Part shown: positions 908 through 48,644 of the stretch, piece after piece
Position numbering within the stretch: the stretch's first letter is position 1
Layout of the letters: every line of letters starts with the position of its first letter
From: Escherichia coli
GTDB taxonomy: Bacteria > Pseudomonadota > Gammaproteobacteria > Enterobacterales > Enterobacteriaceae
Assembly (NCBI RefSeq): GCF_016903815.1
Contig: NZ_CP069971.1
Length of the DNA stretch: 48,644 nt
Reading direction: 5' to 3' (one strand)
Notes under the pieces: generated by a model
Seen by the model: the letters and a program-made list of their open reading frames with translations, nothing else
Databases searched by the model: none
What the model was told of the DNA's origin: nothing
Translations under genes and position numbers: made by a program

Positions 908-1285
908 TTACTCTCTTCGCTTTTTCAAATAGTCGACAACATACGCCCTGGCTTTTGCCAGCTTCCGGCGATACTGTCTGAGACTAAGAGAAAGGGCGTG
1001 GGCTTTATCAATATGCGGTGCATTTATGTCGAGGCCCCGAATCTCCCACGCCCCGTATTCAATTCGGACAACCAGCGCCGCAGTCTCATCAACTACCGTG
1101 AGGGCCGTCACCGCTCCCTCGATACTGGTTTCCAGTGAGTCATTTGGTGCGCCGCCCCCTCCGGTAAACTGGCAGCGCGTAACCATCATCATTTCTAACA
1201 TCGACGCGAAACCGCTACGGGCGTTGCAGCCATTGCGCACCCACAGCGCCCATAGCTCAAACAAGCTATCCAGATCGCGTCTCAC
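908..1285 (-). CDS. putative late-gene antiterminator (Q-like, QuuD-type small family)
   Basis: 125 aa; N-terminal LFELWALWVRNG...SGF resembles the LERWGAWA...GF start of small Q-family antiterminators; sits at the end of a nin-like gene string. Confidence 0.45.
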   Translation of the reverse strand: MRRDLDSLFELWALWVRNGCNARSGFASMLEMMMVTRCQFTGGGGAPNDSLETSIEGAVTALTVVDETAALVVRIEYGAWEIRGLDINAPHIDKAHALSLSLRQYRRKLAKARAYVVDYLKKRRE

Positions 1286-3274: not shown

Positions 3275-3400
3275 AAAACCACGATATGTGGTATTAAAAC
3301 CACATATCGTGAGTTTTTCAATGGGCAAAACAAAAAATAACCTTCTATTTGTGGTCCACCTCTCGTCTTACCATGTGAAAACCACTAAATGTGGTAATGT
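3275..3400. promoter_or_regulatory. divergent promoter/operator region with ACCAC-N5-GTGGT operator sites
   Basis: Cores at 3278-3292 (ACCACGATATGTGGT), 3299-3313 (ACCACATATCGTGAG, the mirror of the first) and 3381-3395 (ACCACTAAATGTGGT), plus a GTGGTCCAC element at 3351-3359. Confidence 0.6.
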
Positions 3401-3432: not shown

Positions 3433-4089
3433 ATGAAAAGCAACGACGAGAACATCAAGAAAGAAATAGGTCTGCGCATTCAGACTCTACGGAAACAATC
3501 CGGCATGACTGCCGGAGATCTCCAGCAAGTCACTGGAATAGGCTTAAGCACCTTGCAGAACTATGAGGCCGGATTAAGACAACCATCTATACCTGCCATC
3601 AAGAAAATCGCGCACGCCCTGAAAGCATCAGCGCCTTATATCGCGTGCTTAACAGATAACCCGTTCCCACCCCAGAATACTAACGCTCCTGTTATTCCTG
3701 GGCTTGTAGCTATAAAAAATGACATAGCATCGCACGCCGGAGAAAAGCCAGTGCTGGCGATAGAACAGGAGATTCTACGAAGCAAGAACATCAACCCATC
3801 GTCTCTGTCAGTTCTCCAGAGCAACGATGAGTTAATGTCACCAACAATATCCCCTGGCTCCCAAGTCCTGATTGATACAGACGATACAGAGATTCATGAG
3901 GGGATCTATGCCCTTGAAGACAGAAATGGCCTGGTTGTTTTGAGGCACTGTAGAGTCATACCGGGTGACAATGCTGTTATGCTGTCAACCGAAAGGGATG
4001 CTGAAATGAACACTAAGCATCTGAATAACGAGGAATTTAAGCGTTATAAAGTTCTGGGCCGCGTAGTTAGTGTTGTCAACTGGTTATGA
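3433..4089 (+). CDS. CI-like repressor (N-terminal HTH, C-terminal LexA/S24-type autopeptidase domain)
   Basis: 218 aa; HTH GLRIQTLRKQSGMTAGDLQQVTGIGLSTLQNYEAG; C-terminal ...VVLRHCRVIPGDNAVMLSTERD...YKVLGRVVSV resembles S24 peptidase. Confidence 0.75.
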   Translation: MKSNDENIKKEIGLRIQTLRKQSGMTAGDLQQVTGIGLSTLQNYEAGLRQPSIPAIKKIAHALKASAPYIACLTDNPFPPQNTNAPVIPGLVAIKNDIASHAGEKPVLAIEQEILRSKNINPSSLSVLQSNDELMSPTISPGSQVLIDTDDTEIHEGIYALEDRNGLVVLRHCRVIPGDNAVMLSTERDAEMNTKHLNNEEFKRYKVLGRVVSVVNWL

Positions 4090-4131
4090 TACACAGCACG
4101 GCGAAAGCCGTGCATTTCTACGCTCAAAAAA

Positions 4132-4560: not shown

Positions 4561-4585
4561 AAGCGGGCTAACGCCCGCTTATATG
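4561..4585 (+). terminator. intrinsic terminator hairpin
   Basis: AAGCGGGC-TAAC-GCCCGCTT followed by a T-rich stretch. Confidence 0.5.
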
Positions 4586-4589
4586 ATTA

Positions 4590-4683
4590 TAGATTTATAT
4601 AATTATATAAAACGCTTTTCATCCGCCAAAAAGTTGGTTATGCTTACCTCGTTCTATAAATATAGATTTATAGAATTATATAA
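4590..4683. repeat. two AT-rich composite sites (ATAGATTTATA + TATAATTATATAA) upstream of parA; candidate centromere/operator
   Basis: 4590-4610 ...tagatttatataattatataa and 4661-4683 tatagatttatagaattatataa. Confidence 0.5.
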
Positions 4684-4706
4684 CCAAACACATGGAGTCT
4701 CGACAA

Positions 4707-5360
4707 ATGACTATCTCTGTAGGTATTTTCAACGGAAAAGGCGGCGTAACCAAATCAACAATTGCCCGTGCTTTAGCAGTTGCTTATGCAAAGGCTGGCT
4801 GGAATGTATGCCTGATCGATATGGATGTGCTTAACGGAACGGTAACGCGTTGGGTACAACGCAGAATGGCCAACAATATCGAACCAGCAATCGCGGCGCA
4901 GCCGTGCGGCACACCATCACAAGTCCAGAAAATCATCGAATCAGAAGTATACGACCTGGTTATCGTCGATGGCGGTGCCTACGCATCTGAATCAGTACCG
5001 AAGCTCTCTGAATTTCTGGATATGGTTATTTTGCCAACCAGATTCTCTACCGATGACCTGGAAACCACCGTTAACACAGCTCACGGCATCGTTAAAAAGG
5101 GTGTACCAATCAAGAAAATTTGCATGGTGTTTTCCGGCGCGGCTGAAAACGAAGCTGACTATATTGAAGCCCAAGAGTACCTGGCTAATACGCCATACTT
5201 TGTTGTCGATAAGTACATTCCCCACAAGCCAGCTCTGAGCAAAGCTCAGGATAAGGGCTTAAGCCTTATTGAGTGCTCATACGTTGCGCCACGCAAAAAG
5301 GCAGACGATGTTATCCAGGGGATTATCAATCAGCTTGAGGCTCTGACTACTGCCGCGTAA
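4707..5360 (+). CDS. parA: ParA-family partition ATPase (deviant Walker A)
   Basis: MTISVGIFNGKGGVTKSTIA...CLIDMD; GGAG RBS about 10 nt upstream of the ATG at 4707 (the ORF track starts at an upstream in-frame ATG, 4692). Confidence 0.8.
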   Translation: MTISVGIFNGKGGVTKSTIARALAVAYAKAGWNVCLIDMDVLNGTVTRWVQRRMANNIEPAIAAQPCGTPSQVQKIIESEVYDLVIVDGGAYASESVPKLSEFLDMVILPTRFSTDDLETTVNTAHGIVKKGVPIKKICMVFSGAAENEADYIEAQEYLANTPYFVVDKYIPHKPALSKAQDKGLSLIECSYVAPRKKADDVIQGIINQLEALTTAA

Positions 5361-5391
5361 TATATAATTATAGTTTTATAGATTTATATAA
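5361..5391. repeat. AT-rich palindromic site between parA and the ParG-like gene
   Basis: tatataattatag ttt tatagatttatataa, the same motif family as at 4590-4683. Confidence 0.45.
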
Positions 5392-5403
5392 AAGGGGATA
5401 CAC

Positions 5404-5874: not shown

Positions 5875-5900
5875 AAAAAAGGCCCCCGAAGGGGCCTAAT
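5875..5900 (-). terminator. intrinsic terminator (GGCCCC-CGAA-GGGGCC, T-run on minus strand)
   Basis: Perfect GC hairpin flanked by an A6 run on the plus strand, i.e. T6 on the minus strand; lies between convergent genes. Confidence 0.65.
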
Positions 5901-5902
5901 CG

Positions 5903-6022
5903 CTACTTGCTGCTAATGTTTATCGTCACATTCAGAGCGTTATCAGTAATCTTCCAACCCTCCCCATGTGGCGTAAACAAAGCTCCAGTAACAACGATAA
6001 AAATACACATACAGTATTTTTT
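5903..6022 (-). CDS. small hydrophobic peptide (about 40 aa), function unknown
   Basis: MKKYCMCIFIVVTGALFTPHGEGWKITDNALNVTINISSK with an AGGG RBS, ending at the terminator hairpin. Confidence 0.3.
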   Translation of the reverse strand, partial: KKYCMCIFIVVTGALFTPHGEGWKITDNALNVTINISSK

Positions 6023-6423
6023 CATTGTATGGCCCTTACAGGCCGTTTCACGGCATCCCCACCGACGAAAACAACGCGAGAGCAAGCACGGCTGCTTGTG
6101 CTTGCATGTACGGCAACGGAGAATCCTCCCCTAAAGTCGGTGCCCGGGTGCGAATCGGCGGGAAGGTCCACAGGTATTTTACGATTATTTTAAGATTAGT
6201 TATAGGAAAGAAATTAAACGAAAAAACTCGTTTATTTTCACAAAATCAGTAACCTACCCACAATCTGTGAGTTTGCAGGCACAACAAGAACCACAATTTT
6301 ATGAAGCATAATAGTGGACTATTATTACCTTTTGGGTAAAATTAACTTGCTGCTTGTGCTTGCGTGGTTGTTTATACAACAACGTAATGCTGAAAGGACC
6401 GCGAATCCGATCAGCACGAAAGA

Positions 6424-6483: not shown

Positions 6484-6593
6484 TGTCTCTGTTAAAATCC
6501 CGCCGTATTGACATAAATGCGCCATTGGTGGACACTTTCCTAGCCGTAGCAAAATCTACGGTCGGGATTGGAACCCCGTAGACACAATGGCGC

Positions 6594-6616
6594 ATACCGC
6601 GTTAGCGGTTTTTTTA
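6594..6616 (+). terminator. second terminator-like hairpin in the antirepressor leader
   Basis: ACCGC-GTTA-GCGGT followed by T7. Confidence 0.45.
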
Positions 6617-6781
6617 TGCGTAAAGCACTGCTACACCCAAATTATGGTGGGGCGTGCGGGGGAGTCGTAAGACTCGCCGGTTCGTCATTGTGTCCGGTAG
6701 TTCCAACCCTGCACGTCTCACCACCCAATGATTGGAACCTGACGGTGGTGAGTATCCTTAACCTTTAAGGGAATCATCACA

Positions 6782-6973
6782 ATGACAAACCTACCCCATG
6801 ACTATTACGTCAACCTCGTAAAGATCCTTCTCAAGAAAGCCTCATACGCCGATAAATTCCGCCTGGCTGAAATAATCGAGCGCGAAGCTATGCGCATCGC
6901 CAGCAACGATAACGCTGTTTCTGTCGCAAAAATCTCCCTCGTAACCAAAGTAGTTATGGGAGGTGCAAAATGA
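6782..6973 (+). CDS. small protein translationally coupled to the antirepressor gene
   Basis: 63 aa; its stop overlaps the ATG of the next gene (ATGA overlap at 6970). Confidence 0.45.
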   Translation: MTNLPHDYYVNLVKILLKKASYADKFRLAEIIEREAMRIASNDNAVSVAKISLVTKVVMGGAK

Positions 6974-8151
6974 AAACGCTTCCGACCGTTAACACCCTAC
7001 AGCCTATCCTGCATAACCAGATCCCCGTTATCACTACTGAACTACTGGCGCAATTGTATGGAACCGAGCGCCAACGTCTGACGAACAATTTCAATAGAAA
7101 CAAGGAACGTTTTATAGAAGGTAAACACTTTTTTAGGATAGAAGGTAAAGAGTTACGAGAGTTGAAGAACAAAAACTCTTTAAGAGTTCCTGTGAGAGTA
7201 GTTAACGAACCATCTTTAAGAGGGTTACAAATTCCCCCGAAAGTTCGCTCCCTCATCCTCTGGACAGAACGCGGGGCTGCACGTCACGCCAAAATGCTTG
7301 AAACTAACCAAGCGTGGGATGTGTTCGAACGGCTGGAAGACTGCTATTTCAGCCAGAACGCGCAAACGGCCGCGACCGTAACCGTCTCGCCAAGCAATGC
7401 TCGTGAGGTTGTTGATACGCTCAACGCCAAACCAATGTATTACGTTAAGGTGTGCAATAACGAGCCACTCACAACCTCAGCCGATGTTGCCCAGGCATTC
7501 AGCACCACAAACAATTCCATCGTTATGGCCATCGATGCGTTACGCATTCCTCGCACAGCTGCGGCGCGTCATTTCTTTAAAGAGCAACGACCGTTGGAAG
7601 GAAGCGACCGCGAAATAACAATCTATCGCATGACAAAAGACGGATTTACCTTGCTCATGGAAAGTATCGACGGTCCAAGCGTGAAGGATATCAAGCTGGC
7701 CTACATTGAAGCTTTTAACGCTATCAGCAGCGTGTTAAAGGCAGAATACGAGCGAATACTATACAACCGACTGTATCAGGAAACAAAGATTATCCGAACG
7801 GCAACAGAACATCATCGGCTATTAACGGAACCAAACTACCGCAAGACACTAATCAAAGAGTTTGACAAAGCGACGGAGAAAACTAAAGCGGCACTAAATC
7901 TACCAACAATGACTAAGGATGATGTGATATCAGCCTTACTTCTTGATCTACTCAGAAACGCCAGAGCACTTATAAGCTTTGACGAAAACCTGAATCCTCA
8001 GCTCAAGCTACTACCACCGACAGGCAAAGTAGTCGACCAGGCTGATCACAACAGCATACTCAGCGTTCTGGATGCAAACCTGCCAGCCAGGACACTACAG
8101 GAACTGATAAAAATATCTGCGGATAAACTGGCCGCAGGTGCAAAACCATAA
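6970..8151 (+). CDS. antirepressor-like protein (ORF6N/KilA-type N-terminal domain)
   Basis: 393 aa; N-terminal ...NNFNRNKERFIEGKHFFRIEGKELRELK...LILWTERGAARHAKMLETNQAWDVFERLEDCYF matches the ORF6N-type antirepressor pattern as I recall it. Confidence 0.6.
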   Translation: MKTLPTVNTLQPILHNQIPVITTELLAQLYGTERQRLTNNFNRNKERFIEGKHFFRIEGKELRELKNKNSLRVPVRVVNEPSLRGLQIPPKVRSLILWTERGAARHAKMLETNQAWDVFERLEDCYFSQNAQTAATVTVSPSNAREVVDTLNAKPMYYVKVCNNEPLTTSADVAQAFSTTNNSIVMAIDALRIPRTAAARHFFKEQRPLEGSDREITIYRMTKDGFTLLMESIDGPSVKDIKLAYIEAFNAISSVLKAEYERILYNRLYQETKIIRTATEHHRLLTEPNYRKTLIKEFDKATEKTKAALNLPTMTKDDVISALLLDLLRNARALISFDENLNPQLKLLPPTGKVVDQADHNSILSVLDANLPARTLQELIKISADKLAAGAKP

Positions 8152-10173: not shown

Positions 10174-10285
10174 CGGGTTATCTCCGGTTTAACCAGGGCG
10201 GGTATCGCTCGGTTTCGGGTATAACCTTAGGAAATTTTTTCCCACCTGTAAAGCACTTTTTATATAAATCTATAATTATATAAAT
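10174..10285 (-). promoter_or_regulatory. conserved promoter-leader cassette, copy 2
   Basis: Identical to copy 1 over about 103 bp. Confidence 0.6.
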
Positions 10286-22422: not shown

Positions 22423-22630
22423 TATTGCGTCTCCAAGGAGGCAAATTGTTTACTGATATTGGCATAACCGGAGCATCAGGAACTTTAAGAATAATTCCCG
22501 CAGAAAAAAGCACCGTAAAGCGGTGCTCAGTATTAGCATCAATAAGAAGATAAGACAGGTACTCATTACCATACAACTTTAACGCGATACTATCCCATGA
22601 GTCCCCTTGAACCGTTCTATAATCATCCAA
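22412..22630 (-). CDS. tail protein X-like (LysM-like)
   Basis: 72 aa; MDDYRTVQGDSWDSIALKLYGNE... Confidence 0.7.
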   Translation of the reverse strand: MDDYRTVQGDSWDSIALKLYGNEYLSYLLIDANTEHRFTVLFSAGIILKVPDAPVMPISVNNLPPWRRNSVT

Positions 22631-40646: not shown

Positions 40647-40844
40647 AACATCACCTGAAAATAAAAAGCCCCGCGACACCGCGAGGCTGTAAGAGTTACT
40701 TTCGATATAAATCAAGGCGCATTTGCTCCCGCTTAAGCCGAAAAGCCCTCTGCGCCACTAAGATGCGCCACAGGACACCAGCGATAACCACCAGCGAGAT
40801 ACAAAAACACACGGCCACAACCATCAGAAAAATGCCAACACCAT

Positions 40845-41334: not shown

Positions 41335-41408
41335 CCCATGTTCTCCTTTGTCTGGATGTAAAAAAGCCCCGGCAATTGCCGAGGCTCGTTGTTCGTTATC
41401 GTTACGGT

Positions 41409-41609: not shown

Positions 41610-41875
41610 TCATCATCTCCTGCCGCACATACAACCTCACAAAAAACATCAGCGGAATGTTTCTTTTTGAATGAATGGCGCTCAAAACCGCACTCAATAT
41701 CAGGCGCAAAAACATCCACCACATACGGTCTTTCAGAATGTTTGTTTTCCCAACGATAAACCGTAGTGACGTTGAAATGTTTTAACGCTTCACGGTACTC
41801 AACGCTGCCCGTCAGGTTTTTTGAGGTCAGGTATTGCAGGAGGTTTTTTACTACTTCACGGTCTTGTACTTTCAT
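41606..41875 (-). CDS. hypothetical protein, first gene downstream of cassette copy 3
   Basis: 89 aa; RBS supplied by the conserved leader. Confidence 0.45.
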   Translation of the reverse strand: MKVQDREVVKNLLQYLTSKNLTGSVEYREALKHFNVTTVYRWENKHSERPYVVDVFAPDIECGFERHSFKKKHSADVFCEVVCAAGDDE

Positions 41876-41987
41876 CGGGTTATCTCCGGTTTAACCAGGG
41901 CGGGTATCGCTCGGTTTCGGGTATAATCATAGGAAATTTTTTCCCACCTGCAAAGCACTTTTTATATAAATATATAATTATATAATT
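41876..41987 (-). promoter_or_regulatory. conserved promoter-leader cassette, copy 3 (four substitutions relative to copies 1 and 2)
   Basis: tatctccggtttaaccagggcgggtatcgctcggtttcgggtataatcataggaaattttttcccacctgcaaagcactttttatataaatatataattatataa. Confidence 0.6.
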
Positions 41988-42575
41988 CTATGCCACTTGC
42001 CAGAGAGCATCATGCAACTGGATACCTCCATTGCACTGGTTGCCCCAGCCATGCCAACCATCAGGTAAATCACCGCGAGCAAACAGCTCAATACGAGGAA
42101 CATCACCTAACAGCCTTACCAGCTTGTCACGAACCACATCAGGCTTCCGAGAATGCTCCAGACGAGGCGATGTAAACGACTGAATGATCCCCGCATCAAG
42201 GCGGGTCGGCAATTTGCCTTTTACCGCAAACAAGCAATCTTCACTGTTTGCACGAGTCATATGCCCCATCCCCATCACCAGCTTATCTGGTTGTCGGCTA
42301 CCACATTTGTTCCATGTGAAGCCCTTCATGGTCATAAGCCTGAATCCCCATGCTTTCACCACCAGCAACGCTTCTTCTGGCTGAGTCGGAACCCACCACA
42401 TGGCCAACAAACACGATTCAGGATTAGCAAGCTGCCAGACAGGAATACGAGCAATATCCTCAGCTTTCATCGTTGGATACTTAAAACCAGCTCCACGATT
42501 CCCATCCTTACACTTATCTTTGTATTCCCAGGGGGGATCTGCATAAATCAGATTAAACAATGCAATTGCCTCCAT
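41988..42575 (-). CDS. MT-A70-family DNA N6-adenine methyltransferase
   Basis: 195 aa; LIYADPPWEY and ...SRKPDVVRDKL... motifs. Confidence 0.75.
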   Translation of the reverse strand: MEAIALFNLIYADPPWEYKDKCKDGNRGAGFKYPTMKAEDIARIPVWQLANPESCLLAMWWVPTQPEEALLVVKAWGFRLMTMKGFTWNKCGSRQPDKLVMGMGHMTRANSEDCLFAVKGKLPTRLDAGIIQSFTSPRLEHSRKPDVVRDKLVRLLGDVPRIELFARGDLPDGWHGWGNQCNGGIQLHDALWQVA

Positions 42576-42959: not shown

Positions 42960-43100
42960 ATATTTGATCTGTTTGTCTGGTGTGGCGCCGCGCACGAAAA
43001 TCCCAGCCAATAAATTCAGGATTTTTGGGCGCGGCGGCATATCAGACAAACATGGTTGATGCGTGCGCCCATGAGAAAAGCGCATAGAATGTTGTAACTA

Positions 43101-43130
43101 TATATTTATATAATTATAGAAATATATATT
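43101..43130. repeat. AT-rich palindromic site (tatataattatag) upstream of the tRNA
   Basis: Same motif family as at the par locus and the cassettes. Confidence 0.45.
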
Positions 43131-43338
43131 ACTTTCGGCAGTTGATTTCCCATGCCCTGTTATGAGCCAGAATATCTTTCTTTGTCTGGCGGTCCATAAC
43201 ATCGATGTCGTGATCAGTCAGGTAGATGGGCTTTACCCAATCACAGGCGGTATCAACCACCACCGGGACGCTTCCACGACTCCCGCAGCTCGCGATCAAC
43301 ATCGTCATCAGCCATATGGTTAACACTCTGCTGTACAT
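43129..43338 (-). CDS. o-spanin-like lipoprotein (Rz1-like)
   Basis: 69 aa; lipobox-like LIASCGS; overlaps the 3' end of the i-spanin-like gene in another frame. Confidence 0.5.
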   Translation of the reverse strand: MYSRVLTIWLMTMLIASCGSRGSVPVVVDTACDWVKPIYLTDHDIDVMDRQTKKDILAHNRAWEINCRK

Positions 43339-43531
43339 TCCCCACCTCTTTTGTCACTTCTATACGCCGCTCCGCAGTGGCTTTTACAGCGGCTGCATTC
43401 TCATTAATGCGCTGCTTTTCAGCTTCATCTTCGGCCTTTTCTCGCCCCTTCATACGACCAAAACCAAACGCACCGAATGCAACCAATATAACGGTGCCGA
43501 TAAATGACAAAACGGCTTTCAAACCAGTCAT
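43253..43531 (-). CDS. i-spanin-like protein (Rz-like)
   Basis: 92 aa; N-terminal TM helix then a charged coiled-coil-like segment. Confidence 0.55.
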   Translation of the reverse strand: MTGLKAVLSFIGTVILVAFGAFGFGRMKGREKAEDEAEKQRINENAAAVKATAERRIEVTKEVGNVQQSVNHMADDDVDRELRESWKRPGGG

Positions 43532-44070
43532 ACCACCACTCGCTCTTTCATCCAGCCGTAGACAAACGACTCATTAGCCTCGCGCTTCTCCGCCAGCTCC
43601 AGATAGCGTTCGCCCTGCGTACAGTTCAGCGACGTCAGCATCACCCGTTCGCCGTCTTTTCCCCGATTCCCAAGATAAGCACGTAGCGCATTAATGGTAC
43701 GTGGACCGATTCGTCCGTCTGCATCCAAATCGGGATACAGCTTCCCGCGCAGGTTGAACACATTCAGCCAGCGTTGAAGCATTTTTGACGCCACTGTTGG
43801 CCCCATGTTCACCCCCGTGTCACACAGCTCTGCGGCAATATCAGAGGATAATGCGGCCACCTGATCAAAGCGTGGTCCGTACCAGTAATCAGCCTCAAGG
43901 ATTTCCAGTGCCTGTTCGCGGGTTAAATCGCGCATATCGCCACGGTATCCATGAGCACGGGCAGTGTTCTGAGTAATGCCCCACTTTGTTGGGCCTCCCT
44001 TGTCGTCAGGGTGATCCACATAGCCGCCCTCTTTTCCAAGAACGCTGTTAAAAATCTCATCTTTGGTCAT
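43528..44070 (-). CDS. endolysin, glycoside hydrolase family 108-like
   Basis: ...VLGKEGGYVDHPDDKGGPTKWGIT... N-terminal motif. Confidence 0.75.
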   Translation of the reverse strand: MTKDEIFNSVLGKEGGYVDHPDDKGGPTKWGITQNTARAHGYRGDMRDLTREQALEILEADYWYGPRFDQVAALSSDIAAELCDTGVNMGPTVASKMLQRWLNVFNLRGKLYPDLDADGRIGPRTINALRAYLGNRGKDGERVMLTSLNCTQGERYLELAEKREANESFVYGWMKERVVV

Positions 44071-44353
44071 GATTAAACCCTAATGCGTCAACTATCCGCG
44101 CCAGATTGCCCCTGAAATACAGAACAACGATGCAGATAATCAGATTTCCAATAACCACCAGCCAGTGGGATTCTTGATAAAGACCGAACACATAACGGAA
44201 GGGAACATTGGCGTATACAATGACGTAGATATAAGCCAGAAAGGAAACAAATGGACGATGCCTGGAGTCTTTCCGTCGATAAAGCATCAGCGCCATTACT
44301 ATTACTGTGCAAAGCACCGCATTAATCAGTGCTGACGGGTCACTGCTTACCAT
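44057..44353 (-). CDS. holin/antiholin-like membrane protein
   Basis: Hydrophobic segments; sits between holin and endolysin. Confidence 0.4.
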   Translation of the reverse strand: MVSSDPSALINAVLCTVIVMALMLYRRKDSRHRPFVSFLAYIYVIVYANVPFRYVFGLYQESHWLVVIGNLIICIVVLYFRGNLARIVDALGFNHDQR

Positions 44354-44735
44354 TTGAACCCCCTCCACGTAAGCGGGAAAGCATTCCAAAGATGCTACCG
44401 AGATCCTGGCTGTTTACGAACGTGAGGATTTTAATTGTCAATGCAGCCACAATAACCGCACCAAGTGCATCAAGAGGACGATCGTTGTAGCTGGTCCATT
44501 TGGCAAGAAATGAGCCAACTAACGGCGCTCCAATCACTCCAACAATGAACGATGTAAAGAAATAGCCAATCAGCTTGAGACGGCTAATATTCACCGCTGT
44601 AGCAACATAGAAAACAGCGCCAGCAAATGCCCCGAATACAACGCCGTAATCAATACCAGTTGCAATACCAAAAACGCTGGCCCCCATCAGGCCACCAGCA
44701 GCAACGGCCGTACCGGAAATTGGTTCTGCTGACAT
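44340..44735 (-). CDS. holin
   Basis: 131 aa with several TM segments; GAGGA RBS; first gene of the lysis cassette. Confidence 0.65.
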   Translation of the reverse strand: MSAEPISGTAVAAGGLMGASVFGIATGIDYGVVFGAFAGAVFYVATAVNISRLKLIGYFFTSFIVGVIGAPLVGSFLAKWTSYNDRPLDALGAVIVAALTIKILTFVNSQDLGSIFGMLSRLRGGGSNGKQ

Positions 44736-44748
44736 TGAAATCCTCGTT

Positions 44749-44782
44749 AAAAAAAAAGCCCCGCCGAAAAAGGCAGGGCTTC
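44749..44782 (-). terminator. intrinsic terminator immediately upstream of the holin RBS
   Basis: Minus strand GAAGCCCTGCC-TTTTTC-GGCGGGGC followed by T9. Confidence 0.6.
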
Positions 44783-45121
44783 ATAAAGCAACAAATTACG
44801 CGGTAATCGCTTAACGCAGTTTTACTACGTTAAATGAAACACTACACCCAGTTACCACCTAAAACAAGGTTTCCCCATAAAAAAACCTTCATATCGTGGT
44901 TAATCGATCAATAAAAAATCAATGTTCAACTTTTTACCAACCGAACATCCCGACCAGGACTTCCATAATATTCGCCGATATGCCACTGCTTAAGTTGAGT
45001 AATCTTCTCCAACTTAACTCCCATAGAGTCCAGTTTCTGCCATGTTTTCGGTTGTATGTGCTTCATTACCCGCTCTGAATATCTGAATACTGCTCGTAAG
45101 CGCATGGTTTCTCACTACAGC

Positions 45122-45529
45122 TTATATATGTTCACGACTGGACTTCCAGAATATCCACGCCAGATCAACATTCGGGTCCTGGTAATTCATCCCTTCGTTG
45201 GCACGAATCAATAATGTTTCATGGTTTTTATCACCCGCATGAAACCTGACAAGTGCTTCGAACTTTTCGCGCCCATCATCCGGCACTACCACCGTTGGCG
45301 GCGCGGAGAATAGAGGTTTAGGTGATATTTCCGCACGTTTTGCGTATGCTTCAACTGTGTCAGGGTTAAACAGGATTATGTTTTCACCGCATTCCCACGC
45401 TACCGGCTCTGCTTCCAGTGATGCCAGAGCAATTTCATAAGCACGGCGCTCAATATTGTCTCGGACGTCCAGGCTGCCTATGCGCTCTTTGATTTCTTTA
45501 ATCAGTTCTTTGTCGGTTAAAGTGGTCAT
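45122..45529 (-). CDS. hypothetical protein
   Basis: 135 aa ORF. Confidence 0.45.
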   Translation of the reverse strand: MTTLTDKELIKEIKERIGSLDVRDNIERRAYEIALASLEAEPVAWECGENIILFNPDTVEAYAKRAEISPKPLFSAPPTVVVPDDGREKFEALVRFHAGDKNHETLLIRANEGMNYQDPNVDLAWIFWKSSREHI

Positions 45530-47961: not shown

Positions 47962-48260
47962 GCCACAGCCCCTCTCAACGGCTTAACTTTGGCTAATAAG
48001 GTGTTAAACAACATGGAGTTAGGGTTCATGCCAAATGGCAATTCCGGTTTAGCGGAGTAGTACAGGCAACCATTTATTTTCCTGGTTGTTATCTGTCCTT
48101 CGGCAACCATGCTTCTCAGTCTGCAACGCATAGAGTTCTGCGACACACCAATGTGCTCCGCGATTACGTCCACTTTTGAACATGGGTGATCGGTCAGGAA
48201 ATTAATCACATCTTGGGGGTTAATAATTTTGCGTTTCATTGTCGAGGCGTCCTTATACAT
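47958..48260 (-). CDS. putative winged-helix DNA-binding protein (PapI/FaeA-like)
   Basis: ...INFLTDHPCSKVDVIAEHIGVSQNSMRCRLRSMVAEGQITTRK... Confidence 0.4.
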   Translation of the reverse strand: MYKDASTMKRKIINPQDVINFLTDHPCSKVDVIAEHIGVSQNSMRCRLRSMVAEGQITTRKINGCLYYSAKPELPFGMNPNSMLFNTLLAKVKPLRGAVA

Positions 48261-48261
48261 T

Positions 48262-48285
48262 TATATAAATATATAATTCTATATA
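48262..48285. repeat. AT-rich palindromic site (tatataaatatataattctatata)
   Basis: Same motif family as the other seven copies. Confidence 0.45.
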
Positions 48286-48306
48286 CGGCGGGAGACATCC
48301 CGCCGT
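48285..48306. terminator. hairpin ACGGCGGGA-GACA-TCCCGCCGT
   Basis: Perfect 9-bp stem between two minus-strand genes; no clear T-run. Confidence 0.4.
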
Positions 48307-48316
48307 AGGCTTACTG

Positions 48317-48644
48317 TCAGGCTTTCAATAGCGATTCTTTCAGATATCGGGCATCAGCCAGGGCATTTGGAGTAATTTTGCGAATCCATGCATTACGGGT
48401 TGGACTCCACTTAAAGGCGCGTGATTTAAGCAGCGAACGAATGTTTGCCTCTGGTTTGCCAGGGAAATAAAACAGGATGCGGTTATCCTCTGGATCTATC
48501 TCCATAGAAAAGTCGTCGTATTCTTCGCGCTGTGCTCCTGTTACAGACTTGACCGATTCAAGCTCCTTAATACGGCTCTGTAGTCGTTTGATCTCGGCGT
48601 TATTGTTGCTCAGTACGTATGAAGGGAATCCGATGCGCCCAGAA
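48317..48644 (-). CDS. hypothetical protein, 5' end beyond the window
   Basis: The reading frame stays open from 48505 to the window end. Confidence 0.4.
   Translation of the reverse strand, partial: SGRIGFPSYVLSNNNAEIKRLQSRIKELESVKSVTGAQREEYDDFSMEIDPEDNRILFYFPGKPEANIRSLLKSRAFKWSPTRNAWIRKITPNALADARYLKESLLKA

Follow-up and report, generated by a model that had tools for sequence, protein, structure and literature searches.

In the lambdoid phages, namely lambda, phages 21 and 82 and the Stx phages, the late genes are placed under a switch made up of the regulator Q, the promoter pR', the terminator tR' and the lysis genes S-R-Rz. In this study we analysed a stretch of 48,644 nucleotides (nt) of Escherichia coli DNA (RefSeq assembly GCF_016903815.1, contig NZ_CP069971.1; this whole stretch is hereafter called the window), which carries a phage lysis cassette with an intrinsic terminator directly ahead of its holin gene. 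The locus shares with the lambdoid switch a strong terminator ahead of the holin, the co-directional order of lysis, packaging and structural genes with several terminators to cross, and, as the final gene of the early operon, a small regulator gene with a promoter after it; the terminator is placed in the same way before homologous holins of lambdoid prophages. It differs in that its candidate regulator, a protein of 125 amino acids (aa), lies outside the described Q families by sequence, and in that the first terminator is 4.7 kb from the regulator-adjacent promoter, compared with about 70-200 nt in the lambdoid phages. In addition, the promoter cassette is present in three copies, and the prophage is a plasmid with a ParA gene and is not integrated. 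Judged by its sequence, the locus is in kind a member of the known lambdoid system, with a candidate antiterminator that fits no described family.

The phage-plasmid N15, which combines late control by Q with dispersed partition sites, is a second point of comparison. Like N15, the element described here is a plasmid-prophage with a par system, repeats dispersed beside promoters and, as we propose, a Q-type late switch; it has no protelomerase and no linear genome, and its repeats are AT-rich arrays with a period of 8 bp. The fold of the Q protein of phage 21 (Q21) has been described as similar to region 4 of extracytoplasmic function (ECF) sigma factors (bioRxiv 10.1101/651190). The pR'-tR' transcript of Stx phages is known as StxS (PMC7547250), and clusters of prophage small RNAs (sRNAs) have been found downstream of pR' (PMC4104026).

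The lysis cassette and the terminator ahead of its holin

The terminator before the holin had been pointed out in an earlier note, made from the letters of the window alone, and both the coordinates and the description given there proved exact. The hairpin (44782..44749; Table 1) is a G+C-rich stem-loop followed by a U-tract on the transcribed strand, as in other rho-independent terminators. Its energy is -20.5 kcal/mol, and a terminator scan ranked it as the best-scoring terminator-like site of the region. The stem is kept across three lineages, with one fully compensated pair and two one-sided changes. Only 13 nt, AACGAGGATTTCA, separate the T-run from the holin ATG (44735), and these include the GAGGA of the ribosome-binding site. 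No consensus sigma-70 promoter was found in the leader at the threshold of the scan; candidate hexamers upstream of its first stem-loop (SL1) differ between close relatives, and a promoter of this type was rejected. Since 13 nt leave no room for a promoter and none of the consensus sigma-70 type was found in the leader, the lysis genes would be transcribed only by polymerases which arrive from upstream and read through the terminator, a conclusion we regard as sound.

Matches to Pfam and PHROG families bore out the gene order assigned in the same note: holin, holin-like protein, GH108 endolysin and overlapping i- and o-spanins. With a transmembrane holin, a muralytic endolysin and an i-/o-spanin pair with a lipobox, this is a canonical Gram-negative phage lysis cassette. 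The LIASC lipobox was read from the sequence of the o-spanin, whose start lies inside the i-spanin gene in a different frame, and the coordinates show that the second holin-like gene overlaps the 3' end of the holin gene. The holin of the relatives is named 'phage holin family protein' by PGAP.

The surroundings of related holins were compared in 80 IMG/VR loci together with the annotated E. coli, Yersinia and window loci, 85 in all. For 69 of the 85 loci the distance from the end of an intrinsic terminator to the holin ATG is at most 80 nt, and more than 15 different stem sequences are represented. Many of the lambdoid prophages in this sample have a recognisable antiterminator gene that ends 150-200 nt upstream; in other prophages this gene lies 0.6-2.4 kb upstream, with genes inserted, and the terminator is still found directly before the holin. 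A terminator before the holin is the standard lambdoid arrangement and is ordinary in kind. It is because terminators precede homologous holins in lambdoid prophages with bona fide Q genes that we read the arrangement in the window as one of antitermination. The same reading is suggested by the remainder of the late region, where the minus-strand terminators at 44782, 41387, 40688 and 22528 are followed by lysis, packaging and tail genes in the same direction, and where the junctions between terminator and ribosome-binding site at 41387 and 40688 leave no room for a promoter. Processive antitermination predicts just such a late region, long, co-directional and broken by strong terminators.

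A further element was observed in the loci with an 82%-identical holin (L012-L084). Within the ~45 nt upstream of the ATG, between the terminator and the start codon, these share a conserved TCCCCTC-N5-8-GAGAGGACTCACGGCAATAAGAGGGGGCTAA. The CCCCTC of this element could base-pair with GAGGGG in the ribosome-binding site, and the element may be a translational control structure. The window lacks the TCCCCTC element; its cassette begins directly at the ribosome-binding site.

The circular genome and a candidate antiterminator

The window is a complete, circularly permuted phage-plasmid genome of ~48.6 kb. When positions 1000 to 1 were joined to positions 48644 to 48145, they aligned as one 1500-nt stretch with two circular relatives at 99% identity. 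There is a 2-nt gap exactly at the junction of the window ends, inside a DUF3560 gene (phrog_6744; 355 aa in the relatives) which the ends split into 1-738 and 48317-48644 on the minus strand. The gap breaks the reading frame of this gene here and is probably an effect of assembly or trimming. The earlier note's main reservation about antitermination, that the Q-like gene was about 44 kb away, falls because the genome closes into a circle: the distance is an effect of linearisation, and on the circle ~4.8 kb separate the gene for the 125-aa protein from the holin downstream, both being on one strand and with co-directional genes only between the two. The annotated circular relatives have the same gene order, with this gene 4.2 kb upstream of the holin.

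The closest relatives, all circular, are the Yersinia phages vB_YpM_39, vB_YpM_41 and vB_YpM_44 (49 kb) and E. coli plasmids of 46-57 kb, and the element is a myovirus related to these Yersinia phages which occurs as plasmids in E. coli. Of the 5,426 complete RefSeq E. coli genomes, 62 contain a close relative of the leader region, the matches listed being records of 46-57 kb. The leader is also present on 57 PLSDB plasmids, every one typed as non-mobilizable; among the carriers are the 48,488-bp plasmid NZ_CP009073.1 of the reference strain ATCC 25922, whose leader is 96% identical, and plasmids from E. fergusonii, E. albertii and Klebsiella aerogenes. Identity with the pSLy3/SSU5 group of phage-plasmids was considered and could not be established, and the SSU5-supergroup literature found makes no such link.

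The early rightward block closes with the gene for the 125-aa protein. About 30 enterobacterial proteins, uncharacterised and without a Pfam domain, make up the family of this protein. From an alignment of 24 sequences an AlphaFold model was built (pLDDT 77); in a Foldseek comparison of this model with the PDB, phage 21 Q accounted for the top four matches and several more among the top 13, with TM-scores of ~0.5. Alignment of the family with ten PGAP-type 'antiterminator Q family' proteins from holin loci, using hhalign, extended over 71 columns (E 0.0049); the two groups have in common an N-terminal LExWxxW, a GF motif and an acidic helix. One of the 24 family members matches PF06530 at an E-value of 0.074. 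In NCBIfam there was only a weak, sub-threshold match to PA0613_fam, and we found nothing in the literature on the function of PA0613.

Compared with Q21 (PDB 6P18, 6P1A and 6JNX), the predicted structure has a similar sigma-region-4-like helical fold with extra N-terminal helices. The protein is shorter (125 aa against PDB chains of 138-156 residues) and has no significant sequence match, residues 23-46, where the 'torus' would be formed, are of low confidence, and no element of two direct 8-bp repeats was recognised. There is moderate evidence for a distant Q21-type protein, which stops short of family membership. The label 'Q-like' used in the earlier note is supported in part, by the fold resemblance to phage 21 Q and sigma region 4 and by the weak profile match, and does not extend to Pfam or NCBIfam membership: the protein falls outside the known Q families (PF03589, PF06530 and the lambda Q family).

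A repeat search revealed a unit of 114 nt in three minus-strand copies, 92-100% identical, each of them a promoter cassette (P1-P3). Every copy has an AT-rich element with a period of 8 bp, the spacer inverted repeat GGAAA-N3-TTTCC and an identical 5' untranslated region (5'UTR) of ~45 nt reaching an ATG. P1 stands directly after the gene for the 125-aa protein on the same strand, as does a late promoter after its regulator gene. P3 is followed by two small genes, the terminators at 41387 and 40688, and the packaging genes. In Salmonella relatives the cassettes are found at the same places, and their copies are identical to each other and differ from those of E. coli at the same positions; this concerted change would fit co-evolution with a trans-acting factor. 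At locus L086, a more distant relative which encodes a Q-like protein of 59% identity, the Q-like gene is followed, after ~0.7 kb with three small open reading frames (ORFs), by an AT-rich region, and then come a promoter (TTAATA-16-TATATT), ~65 nt, a terminator and genes. This reads as the canonical pR'-tR' layout.

The explanation that we favour, and hold with middling confidence, is that of a terminator-gated lysis cassette of the lambdoid type, carried by a phage-plasmid and subject to processive Q-type antitermination by the 125-aa protein. The hairpin is the 3' end of a conserved ~190-nt leader module ahead of the cassette. In the plasmid (lysogenic) state it would insulate the lethal lysis genes from accessory-gene transcription over the ~4.7 kb upstream. 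During the lytic cycle the 125-aa protein, whose gene closes the early operon ~4.8 kb upstream, would make RNA polymerase resistant to terminators. It would be loaded most likely at P1, and at P3 before the packaging and structural genes, and the modified polymerase would then pass the terminators at 44782, 41387, 40688 and 22528. The mechanistic steps that go beyond the sequence features are those that we infer. An antitermination-controlled late operon, which the earlier note had thought the arrangement reminiscent of, is still the best reading, given the terminators before homologous holins and the further terminators of this genome; the identity of the Q protein is the part which is supported only partly.

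Several observations weigh against this explanation. Searches of the 125-aa protein against Pfam, PHROGs, NCBIfam and PDB-sequence profiles gave no significant match, residues 23-46 of its model are disordered, the Foldseek E-values for Q21 are weak (0.3-0.9) and the hhalign probability is only 7%; a sigma-region-4 fold would also suit an ordinary activator or repressor. The cassettes contain no Q-binding element and no clear -10-like sigma-dependent pause element that we could recognise. No terminator lies near P1, the first being 4.7 kb away, and P2 heads a short operon without late genes. In some relatives genes stand between the gene for the 125-aa protein and the cassette, the Salmonella lineage having one extra gene there. 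Finally, an almost invariant 57-nt core of the leader is left unexplained by a Q model.

The leader module and the competing explanations

The earlier note had described the leader as a non-coding stretch of ~340 bp. The gap between the upstream 135-aa gene (stop at 45122) and the holin is 386 nt and is partly coding, and the true leader comes to ~190 nt, since a conserved small gene (phrog_9594) falls inside. This gene is annotated in the Yersinia phage vB_YpM_41. In Salmonella plasmids and an IMG/VR contig (L088, L099) many of its nucleotides have changed, and its product is nevertheless conserved as a protein. The product has a net charge of ~+8 and an Arg-rich N-terminus; a homologue search with it returned close homologues only, and its AlphaFold model was unusable (pLDDT 52.6). 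In contig L010 the gene is absent and the leader is kept; the module boundary seen in this contig falls at ~44928, so that the terminator is always accompanied by ~190 nt. We also looked in L010 for a Q gene just ahead of the leader and rejected it, as only accessory genes were found there.

Within the leader, SL1 is followed by the 57-nt core, which comprises a G/U-rich stretch and a second stem-loop (SL2), and then by a divergent linker of ~30 nt and the terminator. The core differs by at most three changes among the E. coli, Salmonella and IMG/VR lineages, where neighbouring genes are 71-80% identical, and it is the most conserved stretch of the region compared. It contains no ORF of at least 30 aa. 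A weak promoter-like motif, TTGTTT-17-TAGTGT, lies inside it and agrees with the consensus at 6 of 12 positions. The core may be a nut- or put-like cis site, a pR'-like promoter with a short terminated RNA, or a 3'UTR-derived RNA of the upstream operon.

Members of the same phage-plasmid family with a non-homologous lysis cassette were found in the Salmonella plasmids NZ_LN890526 and NZ_CP044178 and the IMG/VR contigs L096 and L099. These relatives keep the phrog_9594 gene, SL1, the 57-nt core, the position of the linker and the terminator, and the near-invariance of the core where the lysis cassette has been replaced was unexpected. The exchange boundaries are the T-run of the terminator and the AT-rich element just past the o-spanin stop, and therefore the terminator belongs to the backbone of the phage-plasmid and not to the lysis cassette. 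In the Salmonella lineage ~50 nt lie between terminator and holin start, compared with 13 nt in the window; the abutment of terminator and ribosome-binding site in the E. coli lineage is a recombination joint. The alternative cassette (L099 4629-6009; L088 6225-7598) encodes a holin of 95-97 aa, a lysozyme and a spanin of 184 aa in which an o-spanin is embedded. Its holin has a possible dual-start motif, MEMKSMNLK, and its lysozyme has an N-terminal hydrophobic segment, maybe a signal-anchor-release domain. The o-spanin lies wholly inside the i-spanin gene, so that a different spanin architecture is found downstream of the same leader.

An Rfam search of the leader gave no family above threshold. 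Kinship with GcvB (RF00022) was rejected: the score is 34.3 bits in the window against a gathering threshold of 42 bits, falls in the Salmonella version to 21.7 bits, the level of unrelated sRNA models, and the UGUUGUG (R1) seed is absent. What the leader appears to retain is an 'sRNA-like architecture' only, without membership of GcvB. In the window, and not in the Salmonella version, the 5' arm of the terminator could base-pair with the G/U-rich stretch in the manner of a riboswitch; this reading was likewise set aside. A search for phage-internal targets of the G/U-rich stretch gave nothing convincing.

Could the leader itself be the site of control? Antitermination might be RNA-based, the core being a nut- or put-like site which recruits an N-like protein, possibly the basic phrog_9594 product, or which acts directly on RNA polymerase. 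The conservation of the core relative to the neighbouring genes and its persistence next to a non-homologous cassette speak for such a site. The core lies 30-35 nt upstream of the terminator, much as lambda nutR precedes tR1, SL2 is a 9-bp stem with a pentaloop, and the charge and Arg-rich N-terminus of the small protein would suit an N-like partner. A conserved linear element and a hairpin a few tens of nt upstream of a terminator are indeed common to this leader, lambda N/nut and HK022 put, but here there is no convincing boxA, the loop is unlike known boxB loops, and no recognisable N homologue was found. The invariance of SL2 means that there is no covariation to call upon, no Rfam family supports the structure, the phrog_9594 gene is missing from L010 though the leader is kept, and the unusable model of its product does not help. 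Moreover, a single site in the leader would leave the read-through of the terminators downstream of P3 unexplained, and we consider RNA-based antitermination unlikely. To a leader-borne late promoter similar to lambda pR' we give an equally low probability. In the lysogen its product would be an RNA of ~85-150 nt that stops at the terminator. The Q-like protein would be loaded at this promoter and not at the P cassettes, and the short RNA might also serve as an Hfq-type sRNA. In its favour are the L010 boundary, with ~190 nt always accompanying the terminator, and the promoter-like motif of the core, in whose spacer all three variable core positions fall. At the 5' side a hairpin covaries, the single-stranded stretch after it is invariant, the linker is variable, and the terminator, with its long U tail, covaries again; this pattern of conservation is also sRNA-like, and to it may be added the sub-threshold GcvB match and the precedents of StxS and the prophage sRNAs near pR'. 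Like StxS and lambda 6S RNA, the leader is a structured, conserved, RNA-sized segment that ends at a terminator before late genes, and the long U tail is typical of Hfq-binding RNAs; it differs from these in being a putative transcript unit only, maybe the 3'UTR of the upstream operon. However, a 6/12 match is to be expected by chance in ~190 nt (0.15-0.5 by our estimate), a -10 element upstream of SL1 would fall at positions that vary, the GcvB score does not hold up in the Salmonella version, and no convincing target exists within the phage.

It is also conceivable, and in our view similarly improbable, that there is no dedicated antitermination. The hairpin would then simply end the accessory operon, maybe stabilising its 3' end or releasing a 3'UTR-derived RNA, and, when upstream transcription increases upon induction, a constitutive leak of a few percent would yield small amounts of holin and endolysin. 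Few intrinsic terminators stop every polymerase, and a terminator which sits in the conserved backbone, with lysis cassettes swapped in just downstream and its closeness to the ribosome-binding site a recombination joint, is consistent with such a leak. Yet nine U and an energy of -20.5 kcal/mol place this hairpin among the strongest designs, the same design stands before the essential packaging genes, where a leak would be a poor strategy, and related holin cassettes lie behind Q-controlled terminators. Processive Q-type antitermination by the 125-aa protein might, on the other hand, be only one part of the answer. The late genes of this family of phage-plasmids, widespread in E. coli, Salmonella and Yersinia, may be run by an undescribed Q21-like branch which loads at the triplicated cassette, with the 57-nt core acting in addition as a novel functional RNA, be it a site for antitermination in cis or a small RNA that derives from the terminator in the plasmid state; we regard this joint reading as possible and on balance doubtful.

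Dispersed repeats, other loci and significance

The AT-rich arrays with a period of 8 bp (TATAAATC / TATAATTA / TATAGATT, direct and inverted) occur at no fewer than eight intergenic sites (Table 1). They flank the ParA gene (4692-5360), precede the three promoter cassettes and bound the lysis module. The arrays could be a dispersed centromere or the sites of a global regulator, for which N15, KorB of RK2 and the omega protein of pSM19035 offer comparisons.

Table 1. Positions of the lysis genes, terminators, leader elements, candidate regulator and repeats in the window
Feature	Position	Strand	Description
Intrinsic terminator	44782..44749	minus	11-bp stem (44782..44755), 7 G-C, 6-nt loop, nine T at 44757..44749
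Second co-directional terminator	41387..41364	minus	-18.8 kcal/mol; T-run ends ~23 nt before ATG 41334
Third co-directional terminator	40688..40667	minus	-16.6 kcal/mol; ends ~12 nt before ATG 40646
Fourth co-directional terminator	22528..22508	minus	-12.2 kcal/mol; tail block, after tape-measure gene
Holin Shine-Dalgarno GAGGA	44745..44741	minus	5 nt from ATG; read from sequence
Holin	44735..44340	minus	131 aa; PF16931 Phage_holin_8, E 1.7e-37
Second holin-like or antiholin gene	44353..44057	minus	98 aa from ATG at 44353; PF05449 Phage_holin_3_7, E 8.9e-18
Endolysin, GH108 and PG_binding_3	44070..43528	minus	PF05838, E 6e-27; PF09374, E 8.9e-27
i-spanin	43531..43253	minus	92 aa, N-terminal transmembrane segment; phrog_1026 Rz-like spanin, E 5.9e-32
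o-spanin	43338..43129	minus	69 aa; phrog_1275 Rz-like spanin, E 3.5e-33
Candidate antiterminator gene	1285..908	minus	125 aa; predicted fold similar to sigma region 4 / Q21
Promoter cassette P1	734-857 (114-nt unit 734-847)	minus	TTTACA-17-TAAGGT; starts ~50 nt past stop of 125-aa gene
Promoter cassette P2	10170-10283	minus	TTTACA-17-TAAGGT
Promoter cassette P3	41872-41995 (114-nt unit 41872-41985)	minus	TTTGCA-17-TATGAT; upstream of packaging and structural block
Small basic protein gene, phrog_9594	45105..44926	minus	59 aa; phrog_9594, E 8.6e-46
Stem-loop SL1	44889..44866	minus	three pairs changed on both sides (U-A to A-U) in Salmonella lineage
57-nt leader core	44869..44813	minus	G/U-rich stretch and SL2; almost invariant across lineages
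Stem-loop SL2	44833..44811	minus	9-bp stem, 5-nt loop UAAAA; invariant, hence covariation uninformative
AT-rich arrays	825-857, 4580-4612, 4653-4693, 5361-5393, 10261-10283, 41963-41995, 43091-43131, 48246-48286		11 matches against 0 expected by chance

A perfect palindrome of 13-14 bp (CACGATATGTGGT...ACCACATATCGTG) was found at 3279-3312, between a divergent XRE/S24 repressor gene (3433-4089) and the first early gene (3258), and ACCACAT-N-ATGTGGT half-sites (repeat family D5) at 4126, 6463, 13879 and 39973. The palindrome and the half-sites are probably repressor operators. Above-threshold Rfam matches to ryfA (5875-6171, minus strand), isrK (6543-6615, plus) and C4 antisense RNA (6640-6728, plus) are directly followed by an ORF6N/Rha-type anti-repressor gene (6970-8151, plus). 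This region looks like the antisense-controlled anti-repressor (immI-like) region of P1/P7, and ryfA is possibly a small toxin locus. A long minus-strand hairpin at 42970-43052, with 34-nt arms that are 85% complementary and a 15-nt loop, lies directly upstream of a tRNA gene with a CAT anticodon (42959-42884, minus strand) and could be a processing or regulatory structure. ARAGORN assigned this tRNA as tRNA-Met, and PGAP calls the equivalent gene in one relative tRNA-Ile.

These findings suggest that a common and unstudied phage-plasmid of E. coli has its lysis genes organised in the manner of a lambdoid late operon, and they nominate a specific uncharacterised protein family as the antiterminator. 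They also bring to light a conserved leader element and a triplicated promoter cassette. For genome scans they carry a caution, as the apparent separation of 44 kb between regulator and lysis genes was a mere effect of the point at which the circle had been cut.

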